Of a stretch of 64,000 nt of DNA, positions 21,607-33,419 are shown piece after piece (position 1 is the stretch's first letter; every line of letters begins with the position of its first letter). Both the position numbers and the translations under genes were made by a program. A model generated the notes under the pieces. That model searched no databases. It worked only from the letters and a program-made list of their open reading frames with translations, and had not been told where the DNA came from. Location: assembly GCA_037305845.1 (NCBI GenBank), contig CP147778.1:192001-256000 (forward strand), read 5' to 3'. This stretch comes from Candidatus Freyarchaeum deiterrae. GTDB lineage: Archaea > Asgardarchaeota > Jordiarchaeia > Jordiarchaeales > Jordiarchaeaceae.

Positions 21607-21684
21607 GAGAAAAAACTACTGAAATTAAACCTAAAGACTATACTACGCCAAGGAATTTGGCTTCATTAAAAATTATAATTTTTA

Positions 21685-21767
21685 ATTGCGCGATTCTAGT
21701 TGAATCTTATAAGATATAAAAGGATTTGAAAAATTAGTAATTTAGTATAATGGTAAAACTTATTAAA
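21685..21767 (+). promoter_or_regulatory. Conserved promoter copy 0 (ATTGCGCGAT, TTATTAAA 75 nt downstream)
   Basis: Palindrome starts 21685, TATA starts 21760; same spacing as the three other copies. Confidence 0.7.
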
Positions 21768-21789
21768 TTTATGTGTAAGTAGATTGATA

Positions 21790-22160
21790 ATCGAGTCCAA
21801 AATGTTTCCCAACTTAACCCGACAAATCTCAGACCCACCGGGAAACATTGACGGATGAGAAAACGAATCCAAAAATAAAAATGACAATGGTTGTCAACTC
21901 CCACGAAGAGTATATGCACCCACGCACCCGAAAATGCTTACCTGGGAAGGAAAAGGCCCGAGGGGACCAGGGGGATTCCCAGGCGAGCAACTCCATTTTC
22001 ATTAAAACCTCTAACTAGTCACAGATGTAACTTCTAAACTTTCCAGAATTTGGTGTTCTATACTCCATTATGGTTTGAAATGTGGGACATTGCACTGCTG
22101 GTAGGTGGCTTCACAACTTCCCGTGGGAACCGGCGAAGGTAATGTAATAACCCGAAAGAT
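21790..22160 (+). ncRNA. Candidate structured ncRNA (divergent relative of copies 1-3)
   Basis: Stems AATGTTTCCC/GGGAAACATT, TGACAA/TTGTCA, TGCTTACCTGGGAA/TTCCCAGGCGAGCA, CATTGC..TGCTGGT/ACCGGCG..GTAATG; shares CACGCACCC.AAAA with copies 1-3; lies behind the shared promoter; no credible ORF; ends approximate. Confidence 0.55.
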
Positions 22161-22318: not shown

Positions 22319-22897
22319 TTACCACATTTTTCCTTTGTAATGCTGCATTATGGGGCAACCGAGGCACTTTTTTTCTTTGTATCTCTTGCATTCGGTGCAA
22401 AGGTATTCGGATCCGCAGAGCGGTCTATCCATAATGTTTATTTTCATTTGGTAGGGAAGGTTTAGGTCCTTTGCGGCTGAAATTATAATGTTGAATTCGA
22501 CGTCTTTGACCTCTGGTAGTCGTCCTAGGTGGCATTCCACTACCGACTGGAGGGTTGATATATCCTCGCCTATGAGAAGCATGAAGACGCTATTTTTTCC
22601 TGATATTGTGAATCCGTTGAAGAAGTGTGGACAATTTTTGAAAATTTCCAATATTTTTTCGCTGTCTGTAGTGGAAACCTCGACTTTGGCAATATAGAGT
22701 CCCATTTTTAGGGGATTTACTCCGCAAATCCTCTGGAATACGCCCATCTCCTTCAGTTTTTTTAGCCTCATAGCTACTGAGGGTTGGGACAGCTTAATGA
22801 TCTCTGCTATTTGTTCCTGAGGAATATCTGGGTCTTCGCTCAGAAGCGATAATATCTCACGGTCTTTCTCATCCAGTTTAACTGCGGGCTCTGCCAT
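22319..22897 (-). CDS. Lrp/AsnC-family transcriptional regulator with Cys-rich C-terminal extension
   Basis: LDEKDREILSLL..LSQPSVAMRLKKL HTH, RAM domain, C-x5-C-x2-C-x7-C-x2-C tail. Confidence 0.9.
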   Translation of the reverse strand: MAEPAVKLDEKDREILSLLSEDPDIPQEQIAEIIKLSQPSVAMRLKKLKEMGVFQRICGVNPLKMGLYIAKVEVSTTDSEKILEIFKNCPHFFNGFTISGKNSVFMLLIGEDISTLQSVVECHLGRLPEVKDVEFNIIISAAKDLNLPYQMKINIMDRPLCGSEYLCTECKRYKEKKCLGCPIMQHYKGKMW

Positions 22898-22941: not shown

Positions 22942-23024
22942 ATTGCGCAATTTCCGTTAAATCAAATAATTTATAATGAATTTGGCTAAAATAATAATAA
23001 AATATATTAGTTATTTTTATTAAA
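22942..23024 (+). promoter_or_regulatory. Conserved promoter copy 1 (ATTGCGCAAT, TTATTAAA 75 nt downstream), overlapping the divergent Lrp promoter
   Basis: Palindrome 22942-22951, TATA starts 23017. Confidence 0.75.
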
Positions 23025-23046: not shown

Positions 23047-23400
23047 CGAGAAGCATAGACAAAAACAAGTTTCAACTAACCACACAAAAACCAGGAGAAT
23101 CCACCTGGAAGGTTTAGAAAAACCGTCAAGAAAACTATTCCCCAAGAAAGTGCTATGGCTCCCGCTAAGCTTACTTGAGGGGTGGGCCCCGAATTGCTGG
23201 GGAGGAGGCCCCCCCTAAGTAAGCACAAACCTCGGATGGATGCGCTCAAACGAGAATGCAGTCGATGACTCACGAGTTTAGATGCGTGAATGAAAGAGCT
23301 TCGCAGGCTAGCAATAGTATTATGTTTATTGCTGACCACCCACCCTCTCTCCCTCGCACAGTCTGTGGAGCCCCATTAAACACGCACCCAAAACAGAGTG
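23047..23400 (+). ncRNA. Candidate two-domain structured ncRNA, copy 1
   Basis: Hairpin 23169-23224 containing TGCTGGGGAGGAGG; long stem 23284-23385 enclosing the invariant TGACCACCCACCCTCTCTCCCTCGCA; ends approximate. Confidence 0.7.
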
Positions 23401-23561: not shown

Positions 23562-23720
23562 ATGACAAATACTCTTACTATAAGAGAAAAAGCCACACTG
23601 GTAGTGGACTTCGATACCTGGAGAGACTTGAACCAGCTCAAAACCGAACTCGGTCTAAAAACCATTGACGATACCATAAAACATTTAATAAAAGAAAACG
23701 GTAACGGCGGCAAGAAGTAG
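23562..23720 (+). CDS. 52-aa ribbon-helix-helix-like micro-protein (not in ORF track)
   Basis: MTNTLTIREKATLVVDFDTWRDLNQLKTELGLKTIDDTIKHLIKENGNGGKK; AAGGAGG RBS at 23548. Confidence 0.75.
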   Translation: MTNTLTIREKATLVVDFDTWRDLNQLKTELGLKTIDDTIKHLIKENGNGGKK

Positions 23721-24115: not shown

Positions 24116-24481
24116 CTATTGTAAGTGTTCTTTGATTATACTTAGCAGGTTTTCAATTTTTATAGGTTTGAGTATGTAACCGTCTGCACCCTTGTTTACG
24201 GCTTCGATGGCGCTCCGCATTGTAGGATAGCCGGTAACCATAATTTTGACCATTTTGGGGCTGGCATCATTAATAGCAGCCAGAAGTTTTGTTCCTTCCA
24301 TGTCCGGAAGTCGAACGTCTATTAATGCTAGGTCGTAAGAATTGGTCTTGGTTTTTTCGATTGCTTCATTTCCATTTTCTGCCGTGTCGACGGTGTATCC
24401 TTCTTCTTCTAGTATTTTTGTTAGGATGCTTCTTATGCTTTCATCGTCATCGACAACAAGAATACTGGCAGGCCCACCCAT
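24116..24481 (-). CDS. Stand-alone response regulator (receiver domain)
   Basis: ILVVDDD, LIDVRLPDMEG, MVTG, YILKP. Confidence 0.93.
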   Translation of the reverse strand: MGGPASILVVDDDESIRSILTKILEEEGYTVDTAENGNEAIEKTKTNSYDLALIDVRLPDMEGTKLLAAINDASPKMVKIMVTGYPTMRSAIEAVNKGADGYILKPIKIENLLSIIKEHLQ

Positions 24482-25004
24482 ACTACTCCCACCATTAATT
24501 TTTGTATTTGATTAGAAGATTTCCAAAGTCCCGCATTTTCCAATAGCGCCTTCCGCGTAGATCCATTCATAGTACATTTTTCGCAGTATCGAATAATAAT
24601 ATTTTATAAACCTTGCAAGAATCTACGCTGCACCGTTTTCTACTTTTTCTGAAAAGTCAAATTCTCCTATACGTATATAATCAATGGTTTTTCTTCAGAA
24701 ACTTTTATGGCTCCCAGATTTAATATTATTATTAATCAGTCTAATCATCTTTTTAAGGCGGAAAGCTTCATTTAACTGCCACACTTCTCCTATAAAAAAC
24801 TATTCAAAAAGTATAATAAAAAAGATATTTTATTCACGCTTTATAGATTTAAATGAGCGCTAATAGTTGAGAAATAAATTAGTAGACGATTATAATTGCA
24901 AAAATACAGGCTTCAAATGGAATTTAATTCGAATCTTGAACAGGTCCACAAACCATATCCAAAAGTTGAGGCTAAATTCCGGGGACAATACAGAGGAGCT
25001 AAAT

Positions 25005-27418: not shown

Positions 27419-27501
27419 ATTGTGTAATTTCAATTAAATTAAATAATTTATAACAAAATTTTCAATAATAATAATAAATTATCATAGTTAGTTTTATTAA
27501 A
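27419..27501 (+). promoter_or_regulatory. Conserved promoter copy 2 (ATTGTGTAAT, TTATTAAA 75 nt downstream)
   Basis: Degenerate palindrome starts 27419, TATA starts 27494; flanks align with copy 1. Confidence 0.72.
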
Positions 27502-27524: not shown

Positions 27525-27872
27525 AAGGAGCTTTAAAAAAATCTCAGAACCGTCCACTTGGGAGGCATACAAGGACCAGCAGGGAATTCCCCCGAGAAAA
27601 CGCTGGCTCCAGCTCTGCTTGCGGGAAGGGGGATTTAAAACTGCTTGGGGCGGAGGACTCCTAAATGTTGGGAGGAGGCCCCCCACCTTAAGCCCGCGTC
27701 CTCCAGAATGGGCGACTTCAGTGATCCAGTAATACAGAACTAAAAGTTTAAAGCGTGAATGAAAGAGTTTCACAGACCCCAAATAATATTAAGATAATGG
27801 ATAGATGACCACCCACCCTCTCTCCCTCGCACGGTCTGTGAAGCTCCATTAAACACGCACCCAAAACAGAGT
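27525..27872 (+). ncRNA. Candidate two-domain structured ncRNA, copy 2
   Basis: Hairpin 27643-27693 with TGTTGGGAGGAGG; stem GAGTTTCACAGACC/GGTCTGTGAAGCTC within 27753-27858; invariant 26-mer at 27806-27831; ends approximate. Confidence 0.7.
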
Positions 27873-30831: not shown

Positions 30832-30914
30832 ATTGCGCAATTCTAGTTAAATCGAATAATTTATAGTGAAATTTATTACACAAATTATGAATTATAATAG
30901 GCAAATTTATTAAA
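30832..30914 (+). promoter_or_regulatory. Conserved promoter copy 3 (ATTGCGCAAT, TTATTAAA 75 nt downstream)
   Basis: Palindrome 30832-30841, TATA starts 30907. Confidence 0.75.
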
Positions 30915-30937: not shown

Positions 30938-31260
30938 GAAGAAAACACTTAGCCCAACTACAAATACAACAGAGTTACACTAATCCTGGCGGTATGGAAT
31001 GGCGGAGGAAATTACAGGGCTCCCAAAAGTGCTTCAACGGAGGATCCCTCAAATGCTGGGAGGAGGAGGGGTCCTCCCGGAAAGCACACGCTTCAACTGA
31101 AGACTGCACTGGAATTGGTAATTCGGAGTTTAACGGGTTGGTTTAACGCGTGAATGAAAGAGTTTCACAGACCCCAAATAAAATTATGATAATGATGACC
31201 ACCCACCCTCTCTCCCTCGCAGGTCTGTGGAGCTCCATTAAACACGCACCCAGAACAGAT
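30938..31260 (+). ncRNA. Candidate two-domain structured ncRNA, copy 3
   Basis: Hairpin 31029-31087 (GGAGGATCCCT/AGGGGTCCTCC) with loop containing TGCTGGGAGGAGG; stem 31148-31247 enclosing the invariant 26-mer at 31196-31221; ends approximate. Confidence 0.7.
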
Positions 31261-31295: not shown

Positions 31296-31529
31296 ATGGT
31301 TGAAGTTGTTAAGACATTTGGTGAGTTAAAATATCTGGCTGAGAATTGGATAAAGGTGTATGATTTAAAGTGTCCTGTGTGTGGCTCACCGGTCTTCGTT
31401 AGACCATTCAATGTGTTCTCGGTAGCGGCAGAGAGTGGTCTTATTGAGATTGAAATGGAGCAGATATGCCAGAATTCAGAATGTGGTTATAGTGCAATCA
31501 GATTTTATGATATTCAAATTCACGAATAA
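31296..31529 (+). CDS. Small zinc-finger protein
   Basis: CPVCG...CQNSECGY; GGAGTGA RBS. Confidence 0.75.
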   Translation: MVEVVKTFGELKYLAENWIKVYDLKCPVCGSPVFVRPFNVFSVAAESGLIEIEMEQICQNSECGYSAIRFYDIQIHE

Positions 31530-31688
31530 TTCTTGAATTCCTAAACCGATATTTATATTGAATGTGTTACCACAGCAGAAATGTTTTTTGATTGGTTTAG
31601 TGAATAAGCTTAATGTCTATATGTTTATGGTTTACTATTATTACTAGATGAGACTGAAAACGTTAGAATTTGAAAGGCTGGGATCGAA

Positions 31689-33419
31689 TTGTTAAAGGAT
31701 GTTTGTTTGGGGACGCACCTCTGTCAATTCTATGAAACTAAAGAAGATCTTATCGATATTTTAGTTCCCTATTTTGCTGATGGTTTAAGGAAGAATGAGT
31801 TTTGTATGTGGGTGACCTCGCCACCCTTGGTAGTTGAGGAAGCGTGGGCTGCACTTCGGAAAGCGGTCCCTGACTTGGAGAAGTACAGGGAGAAGGGACA
31901 GATTGAGATTCTTCCGTACACGGAATGGTACCTTCTCGGCAGGGAGTTTGATATGAATAGAGTTCTGAATGGATGGGTGGAGAAGGAAAAAAGCGCTATT
32001 GAGCGTGGTTTTGATGGGTTGCGTATTACTGGAAACACTTTCTGGCTTGAGAGGAGCCTCTGGCAAAACTTCGTTGACTATGAGGCTAAAATAAACGAGG
32101 TGATAGGGCAGCATCGAATGATTGCTGTCTGCACTTACTTTCTTGGAAAATGCACCGGCAGCGATGTTGCTGATGTTATAAGAAATCACCAAAGCACGCT
32201 GATTAGAAAGGGAAAATCTTGGTTTATGGTTGAAGATGTTTCAAGGCGTAGATTGGCTGAGAATAAGTTTACAGAGAGCCGGACGCAGTTGAAGAGAAGC
32301 GAAGAGAGATATAGTCTGCTAGTCGAACACTTGAATGAAGGCGTTTGGGCTGTAGATGATAAAGGTGTTACTACCTTTGTTAATGAGCGTTTAGCGGAGA
32401 TGTTGGGATACACCGTGGATGAGATGACTGGTAAGAATTCACATTTATTCCTAAATGAAGAGGGTGTGGAGATTGCTAAAAAAAATTTGGAACTCCGCAG
32501 GCAGGGAATTGAAGGACAGTTCGATTTCGAATTCGTTCGTAAAGACGGAACAAGGATGCTCGGTCGAGTAGGTGCAACACCACTCTTCGATGAAAATGGA
32601 AACTTTGCAGGATCGGTTAGTGTAATCATGGACATAACAGAACGCAAGCGATTAGAGGAGGGTCTTAGGCAGTATTCCGAACACCTTAAGGAGTTGGTGG
32701 AGGAAGGGACTAGAAAGCTGAGAGAAGCTGAGCGGATGGCTACTATAGGTGAGACTGCGGCTATGGTGGGCCACGACCTCCGCAACCCGTTACAAGCTAT
32801 AGTTGGCTCGATCTATTTGGCTAGTGCAAAGTTGAAGTCCATATCCAGACTTAGCCAAGTAAAACAAAAAAGTGACGTAGGGAATCTGTTGCAGACGATT
32901 GAGCAACAGGTGGACTACATGAACAAAATTGTTTCCGATCTTGAGGATTACGCTAGACCGTTAAAGCTTCAACTCGTCGAAACTAGCTTGCAACAGTTAA
33001 TTGATGATACATTATCAACATTGACTGTTCCTGAAAATGTTAAAGTATTCATTGGGATTGAAGAGAATCTTCCAAGTATGATGGTTGACCCCACAGCGAT
33101 TCGACGTGTACTCTCTAATTTAATTACAAATGCCTTTCAAGCCATGCCGGGCGGAGGGCAACTAACGATACGAGCGTCCAAGAGTGAGGACTCTGTTATT
33201 ATGAGTGTTGAGGACACGGGTGTAGGCATATCTGAAGAGAATCTCTCAAAGATTTTCCAGCCGCTGTTCACTACGAAGTCTAAGGGGCAGGGTTTTGGAC
33301 TATCCGTCTGCAGGAGATTGGTGGAAGCCCACGGTGGCAGCATCACGGTTGAGAGTGAGGTGGGTAAAGGCTCAACCTTCACGGTCAAAATTCCTCTCAG
33401 AAAAAAGATGAATAATTAA
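31689..33419 (+). CDS. MEDS-PAS histidine kinase (HK3), 5' end eroded
   Basis: MEDS, PAS, GHDLRNPL, HATPase_c; in-frame TGA at 31671 where HK1/HK2 have CGA. Confidence 0.85.
   Translation: MLKDVCLGTHLCQFYETKEDLIDILVPYFADGLRKNEFCMWVTSPPLVVEEAWAALRKAVPDLEKYREKGQIEILPYTEWYLLGREFDMNRVLNGWVEKEKSAIERGFDGLRITGNTFWLERSLWQNFVDYEAKINEVIGQHRMIAVCTYFLGKCTGSDVADVIRNHQSTLIRKGKSWFMVEDVSRRRLAENKFTESRTQLKRSEERYSLLVEHLNEGVWAVDDKGVTTFVNERLAEMLGYTVDEMTGKNSHLFLNEEGVEIAKKNLELRRQGIEGQFDFEFVRKDGTRMLGRVGATPLFDENGNFAGSVSVIMDITERKRLEEGLRQYSEHLKELVEEGTRKLREAERMATIGETAAMVGHDLRNPLQAIVGSIYLASAKLKSISRLSQVKQKSDVGNLLQTIEQQVDYMNKIVSDLEDYARPLKLQLVETSLQQLIDDTLSTLTVPENVKVFIGIEENLPSMMVDPTAIRRVLSNLITNAFQAMPGGGQLTIRASKSEDSVIMSVEDTGVGISEENLSKIFQPLFTTKSKGQGFGLSVCRRLVEAHGGSITVESEVGKGSTFTVKIPLRKKMNN

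Follow-up and report, generated by a model that had tools for sequence, protein, structure and literature searches.

A conserved structured RNA of the Asgard archaeon Candidatus Freyarchaeum deiterrae with a predicted bulge-helix-bulge splice motif

Few substrates of the archaeal splicing endonuclease have been described outside tRNA and rRNA (the cbf5 mRNA and the Thermoproteus SRP RNA). In Thermoproteus tenax, the SRP RNA is permuted and circularised by EndA (Plagens et al. 2015, PMC4731332), while in the Desulfurococcales and Sulfolobales the cbf5 pre-mRNA carries a bulge-helix-bulge (BHB) intron with relaxed motifs cut by a hetero-oligomeric EndA, for which a regulatory role has been proposed (PMC2738675). 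In yeast, the pairing between the HAC1 5'UTR and its intron was proven by compensatory mutants and blocks scanning (PMC5114014). The lineage of our host has tRNAs that are almost all interrupted, the most intron-rich known. Here we describe a structured RNA element of this lineage whose domain 2 reads as a BHB splice motif of the hBHBh' type, a feature missed by the preliminary description of this DNA.

The element resembles these systems in part. Like the T. tenax SRP RNA, whose BHB is formed by leader and trailer, it would be a non-tRNA transcript with a BHB, in a lineage that likewise has a heterotetrameric EndA and RtcB and is rich in tRNA introns, but it is devoid of SRP features, a normal archaeal SRP RNA is encoded elsewhere in the genome, and the predicted Freyarchaeum circle would measure 81–93 nt. 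With the archaeal BHB tRNA introns and circles, such as the tRNA-Trp intron containing a C/D guide (PMC12558985), it shares the canonical hBHBh' form, cut sites equivalent to 37/38, and ligated exons that also give a 5-bp stem with a 7-nt loop; in contrast, it has no tRNA body, it shows A/G32 and A/C33 instead of Y32-U33, and its putative intron is conserved in sequence, occurs in 1–3 stand-alone copies, and has no conserved C/D boxes. As in the case of cbf5, the BHB intron would belong to a transcript that is neither tRNA nor rRNA, whereas the Freyarchaeum intron lies outside a coding frame and its splicing restores no conserved ORF. The Freyarchaeum RNA belongs to none of the SRP, tRNA-intron, or cbf5-intron RNA families.

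The host is an Asgard archaeon of the Freyarchaeia with a complete genome of 3,576,204 bp (3.58 Mb in PMC11291895), and the whole stretch analysed here, called the window, comprises 64,000 nucleotides of it. Three copies of the element lie in the window among an Lrp gene, a response regulator, and MEDS-PAS histidine kinases (Table 1), and a whole-genome search found no further copies in the host. Each copy follows a conserved promoter block, rich in A and T, whose TATA-like box is also conserved in the homologues; for copy 1, the predicted transcription start is at ~23050. The promoter block is found ahead of genes at about 10 genome loci. Several of the genes behind this ~110-bp block, which contains a ATTGCGCAAT-like palindrome followed by the TATA, are small (sites at G000:C1 614354, 3422567, 527197, 952114, 611210, and 3319805), and some of them look by eye like longin/roadblock proteins; a regulon defined by the shared block is possible. 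A fourth block at 21680-22000 (+) is followed by a GCUUAC-closed purine-loop hairpin (21936-21988) resembling domain 1 and by a CACGCACCC word; the BHB domain is absent there, the models R1 and R2 have no match, and this is probably a decayed copy. Further downstream, at 31647-31689 (+), a TGA falls within the N-terminal homologous region of the third MEDS kinase, and the ORF restarts at TTG.

Table 1. Features of the three copies and of their neighbours (window positions).
Feature	Position	Strand	Basis or remark
Lrp/AsnC regulator	22319..22897	-	divergent from the RNA promoter; conserved neighbour
TATA-like box, copy 1	23017..23024	+	sequence; inside the ~110-bp promoter block
Domain 1 hairpin, copy 1 (5' exon)	23169..23224	+	folds; stem paired though sequence differs in homologues
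Apical motif UGCUGGGGAGGAGG, copy 1 domain 1	23195-23208	+	3' end belongs to the stem
Domain 2 with hBHBh' motif, copy 1	23284..23385	+	closes an 11-14-bp stem; genome-wide BHB scans
BHB parts, copy 1	h 23284-88/23381-85; H 23289-92/23374-77; AAA bulges 23293-95, 23378-80
Predicted 85-nt BHB intron / circular RNA, copy 1	23295..23379	+	from the cut rule (PMC2738675)
C/U-rich single-stranded intron loop, copy 1	23336..23359	+	CCACCC head is the only family-invariant part
52-aa RHH-like micro-ORF	23562..23720	+	profile and cluster matches
TATA-like box, copy 2	27494-27501		sequence
Domain 1 hairpin, copy 2	27643..27693	+	motif 27666-27678; fold
Domain 2 with BHB, copy 2	27753..27858	+	predicted 89-nt intron 27764-27852; loop 27809-27832
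TATA-like box, copy 3	30907-30914		sequence
Domain 1 hairpin, copy 3	31029..31087	+	motif 31054-31066; fold
Domain 2 with BHB, copy 3	31148..31247	+	predicted 83-nt intron 31159-31241; loop 31199-31221
77-aa Cys-rich micro-ORF	31296..31529	+	35 nt after copy 3

Homologues were gathered by means of a covariance model and from metagenome contigs reached via the Lrp and micro-ORF neighbours, giving 13 distinct full sequences, which all come from a single genus of Freyarchaeia (Asgard) or from close metagenomes; Ca. Jordarchaeum madagascariense is a genome of the same genus as the host. Five other genomes of the genus carry one copy each in the same synteny, and the orthologous layout runs from Lrp through the divergent promoter, domain 1, domain 2, and an RHH-like ORF of 52–61 aa to a convergent response regulator. 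Searches of other Asgard genomes, 145 of them in one search and more in further ones, revealed no member of the family, scans of viral sequences and of a first genome collection gave no matches, and a metagenome scan with a low-complexity loop pattern gave chance matches only. Rfam contains no match at gathering score, besides two chance matches, and a literature search of limited coverage found no published description of this BHB RNA family. On the same-family contig L151 (2975-4079), the response regulator adjoins a 5'-truncated Lrp with neither RNA nor micro-ORF, which is either a deletion or an assembly break.

The loops of the three window copies are identical. In the tree of the 5' exons, copy 3 groups with L132b (96/96) and copy 1 with L132a (87/90), and in the tree of the introns copy 2 groups with copy 3 (96/95); the sequences suggest that the intron region has been homogenised between paralogues, either by gene conversion or by an RNA-mediated process. 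Given these identical loops and apparently homogenised introns, the window copies are not independent and overstate conservation. On contig L132 (4445-4565 and 9495-9617, L132a and L132b), the introns are 95% identical vs. 64% for the exons, and the introns of copies 2 and 3 likewise resemble each other more closely than the exons do.

At the base of domain 2, one strand reads GCGUG, AAUG, AAA, and GAG, and the other CUC (CCC in copy 1), CAUU, AAA, and CACGC, which together form a canonical hBHBh' with an outer helix, a central helix of 4 bp that is followed on its 3' side by a 3-nt bulge in each strand, and an inner helix. This geometry was found in its canonical orientation in 13/13 homologues, with A as the first nucleotide of both bulges; the central pairs are 4/4 in nine homologues, including all the window copies, and 3/4 in the other four, while the reversed orientation gives 0–1 pairs. 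In the domain-2 structure, 94% of the cells are paired and there are nine two-sided changes, far above slid controls, with the relatedness of the 13 sequences inflating the shuffle control. When the 14 nt of the junction are shuffled, a canonical BHB arises 0.2–0.5% of the time, and the published null rates for this motif are 1–8% (bioRxiv 10.64898/2026.10.13.758758). Genome scans returned 10–20 BHB matches in 7 Mb (both strands), three of them being the window copies, and 0–3 matches per shuffled strand. The host genome also encodes two EndA paralogues (alpha and beta), located near G000:C1 1921033 and 1733162, and one RtcB.

The same 14 nt can also adopt a register that is not a BHB and that is, by nearest-neighbour energies, more stable by ~1 kcal/mol in the window copies and by 5–6 in the divergent clade, where a C-C or C-A mismatch interrupts the central helix. 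Both this lower energy and the mismatch in four genomes would suit an unspliced linear sRNA or protein-binding RNA, with the base of domain 2 being an ordinary A-rich internal loop of incidental BHB look. Many BHB positions are invariant, hence giving no covariation signal, and the G-U strand bias is not clear-cut. We nevertheless hold the unspliced RNA to be unlikely, as the exact 4-bp/3-nt/3-nt geometry and its orientation are kept in all 13 sequences, only in the BHB register can the invariant CA and UG pair with each other, and the chance rate of the BHB is under 1%.

The reading that we consider probable, judging from sequence and structure, is that the transcript is an EndA/RtcB substrate releasing a small RNA, probably circular, whose C-rich loop is exposed. 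The promoter divergent from the Lrp gene would drive a precursor of 300 nt or more, in which domain 2 would act as a tRNA-less BHB intron; the two-subunit EndA would cut each 3-nt bulge behind its second nucleotide, following the cut rule of PMC2738675, and RtcB would ligate the ends. The predicted introns measure 85, 89, and 83 nt in the window and 81–93 nt across the family, and the released RNA, probably a covalent circle, would have a stem of 11–14 bp presenting an open pyrimidine loop with the invariant head CCACCC. The joined exons would retain domain 1 and a short hairpin, and the exons spliced in silico show this as a 5-bp stem with an NNUGAAA loop, forming no tRNA and no conserved ORF. 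The circle most likely would act in trans through its anti-Shine-Dalgarno (SD)-like loop, either by base pairing or as a protein-binding decoy, and the SD-like loop of domain 1 would be a separate conserved element of the 5' exon that may touch the intron loop by a few G-C pairs in the precursor. The analysis establishes the structure, the BHB geometry, its conservation, the synteny, and the presence of the enzymes, while transcription, cleavage, circularisation, and the function of the loop are inferences.

Several other identities were tried and rejected. An intron-containing tRNA gene was discarded given that ARAGORN at relaxed score finds none in the 13 spliced sequences and that A/C occupies position 33, and an interrupted or split tRNA-Ser(UGA) because there is no cloverleaf. 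For a box C/D guide, CUGA is present in only 4/13 and there is no box C, while for an H/ACA guide the ACA is 19 nt from the would-be pocket (14–16 nt expected); neither has a 4+4 rRNA match. A permuted 5S rRNA (~120 nt) or SRP RNA does not fit a length of 81–93 nt in one genus only, with the SRP RNA elsewhere in the genome. Short ORFs run across the RNA, namely a 29-aa signal-peptide-like frame in copy 1 and a 60-aa gene call in L132, and protein coding was rejected because these ORFs are broken in homologues by 1–2-nt indels and an AUG-to-CUG change. A miniature pre-rRNA shows no sequence likeness to the host 16S processing stem, a MITE or DNA inverted repeat does not agree with just three syntenic copies without target duplication, and a GGA quadruplex fails because the motif holds only three G-runs in some homologues (L146). 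A likeness of the 3' strand to U6 was dropped because this strand is merely the complement of the stem.

Regarding the other RNA genes of the host, no match to a standard 5S rRNA was found in its genome and ARAGORN reports only 17 tRNAs there, both of which are consistent with a permuted 5S rRNA and with heavily interrupted tRNAs. A 5S-like word near 525989 (-) has no Rfam match. The 16S rRNA has an insertion of ~31 nt near its 3' end (G000:C1 1806442-1806520), and upstream of the 23S gene, at G000:C1 1833361, there is a second 16S 3' end, now decayed, that carries the same strand of the processing stem.

The preliminary description had proposed that the apical motif of domain 1 pairs over about 12 bp with the C/U-rich loop of domain 2, as a kissing or pseudoknot contact or as a switch masking the loop. 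Its coordinates and letters are correct (UGC at 23195, GGGAGGAGG to 23208, and CCUC-U-CUCCC-UC-GCA at 23344-23358), and 12/12 pairs can be drawn in copies 1, 2 (with one G-U), and 3, with duplex energies of -21.2, -17.1, and -18.4 kcal/mol. Shuffled loops pair about as well (p = 0.048, 0.084, and 0.040 for copies 1, 2, and 3), and so do other G-rich 14–15-mers of the same transcript in copies 1 and 2 (-19.7 and -18.1). Of the two motifs that it calls single-stranded, the one in domain 1 is so only in part, for it caps a strong local hairpin; in most homologues 7–9 of its 11–12 nt are unpaired, the 3' AGG/GAGG is stem, and opening it costs 5–12 kcal/mol in the window copies. The complementarity is real but weak as evidence and barely goes beyond composition, since the loops are identical and apparently homogenised, the shuffled loops are nearly equal, and the last 3–4 nt of GGGAGGAGG are usually in the domain-1 stem.

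Comparison among the homologues is less favourable still to the long register. The nine copies of the clade of the window keep 10–12/12 pairs with both sides nearly invariant and without any compensatory change between the two motifs; two one-sided changes, UGU:GCA and UGC:GUA, keep a G-U pair, and the UGC:GCA end is disrupted by GGC, which occurs in three related sequences, and by UUC. The motifs also vary independently, the outcome that the preliminary description had itself named as refuting its proposal: in the four genomes of one other clade, L144-L147, CUGGGAGGAGG is unchanged letter for letter, while its CUCUCCCUCGCA partner, the 3' part of the loop, is now A/U-rich, so that the pairing falls to 4–6/12 at -8.3 kcal/mol, no better than shuffles, and the two apparently compensatory cells are isolated A-U matches in one broken copy. 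Pairing a motif with its cognate partner gives no advantage over crossed combinations (permutation p = 0.18). As the loss of the partner in L144-L147 is a single evolutionary event, a clade-specific contact is still conceivable.

A pseudoknot or switch of 10–12 bp that masks the loop, possibly specific to the clade of the window, is therefore quite unlikely in our estimation, although the pairing would be net favourable by -1.8 to -12.6 kcal/mol in the nine copies after the opening costs and before any pseudoknot penalties, and the extra GAG of copy 3 and L132b leaves the whole motif in the loop. Apart from the 4/13 homologues that lost it despite an unchanged domain 1, the shuffled-loop p values span 0.04–0.44 and the register requires opening of the local domain-1 stem. 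A duplex exceeding one helical turn is also topologically difficult to form between two closed loops, which counts against it. Because the two motifs lie on opposite sides of the predicted 5' splice site, any contact would be between exon and intron and would form in cis only before splicing; in the BHB context, the long register would thus either gate splicing or keep hold of the intron until its release, as in HAC1.

The only register open to 13/13 homologues is GGG-A-GG:CC-A-CCC. It connects the two invariant single-stranded words through five G-C pairs that flank an A-A mismatch, and some homologues add a U-A pair. The divergent clade has no better duplex, and as a short family-wide kissing contact this register may help to fold or regulate the precursor. 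However, the invariant letters show no covariation, its -7 to -8 kcal/mol is not better than for shuffled loops (p 0.68–0.94), the runs GGG/GGGG and CCCA/CCCC change in length independently of each other, and an SD-like word is by nature complementary to an anti-SD-like one; we regard this contact as doubtful. The AGGAGG of domain 1 pairs 6/6 with the host 16S tail, and GGAGG and GGUGG are ~10-fold enriched ahead of starts in the host genome. The long and the short registers are each compatible with splicing. On the comparative evidence, the 12-bp duplex appears to be dispensable for the function of the family, and what survives of the proposed pseudoknot would be, at most, a clade-specific or a much shorter contact.

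The alternative of a riboswitch-like leader for the downstream micro-ORF had been held most plausible for copy 3, and a thermometer-like 5' leader was considered along with it. The Cys-rich micro-ORF 35 nt behind this copy is real; the leader is not supported, because the downstream gene varies among the copies and pairing of the loop to the start regions behind the RNA is poor. An RHH-like ORF does occupy a fixed place in the orthologous loci, kept ~150–180 nt behind the RNA in nearly all homologues (the 52-aa ORF of copy 1 matches the MatP_C RHH profile with E 0.003, below cut-off, and RHH_1/DUF7557 clusters at 0.90), and no clear terminator follows directly after domain 2 in copy 1, both of which would agree with a leader. 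Against it, the element has no Rfam match, there are four downstream contexts (RHH-like, decayed RHH, Cys-rich peptide, and, in L132b, a kinase), the distance between RNA and ORF varies between 35 and about 180 nt, pairing of the loop with the downstream start regions or SD reaches only -4 to -12.8 kcal/mol, and in copy 2 the RNA outlasts a decayed ORF. Copy 3 itself is a derived context, and its Cys-rich micro-ORF is not conserved behind L132b, the orthologue of copy 3. A leader function is thus improbable.

Bacterial anti-SD sRNAs of the CcsR/cuckoo and RNAIII type have C-rich loops, and they share with the Freyarchaeum RNA an exposed loop of this kind able to pair with purine-rich start regions; in contrast, the only Rfam match to CcsR1 is at chance level (E 0.82) and on the opposite strand, and no conserved target was found. 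No conserved trans target for the C-rich loop appeared among the start regions of the host genome or with the cognate loops of relatives, the real loop having 27 strong start-region partners vs. 17–23 for shuffled loops. The start region of the convergent response regulator (24466-24516, -) pairs with the C-rich loop at -25.8 kcal/mol, within the top ~0.3% of 2034, and the six further genomes or contigs tested with their cognate full loop reach only -10 to -17.

There is also a likeness to HAC1, where an upstream exon is complementary to the intron of a non-spliceosomal, tRNA-ligase-type splicing event ahead of a DNA-binding protein. This is an analogy only, with the putative Freyarchaeum pairing unconserved, and the nuclease here would be EndA and not Ire1. 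By this analogy, the SD-like loop of the 5' exon would pair with the C-rich loop of the intron and lock the precursor and the RHH ORF until EndA/RtcB act, and the freed circular anti-SD RNA would then regulate the neighbouring two-component genes, as a prokaryotic HAC1/XBP1 analogue, a scheme to which we give very little credence.

In the preferred reading, that of an EndA/RtcB substrate, the apparent product is a small excised circle from a conserved, promoter-driven gene placed in a signalling locus of an Asgard genus. If this is true, the tRNA-splicing machinery in close relatives of eukaryotes would produce circular RNAs dedicated to regulation.
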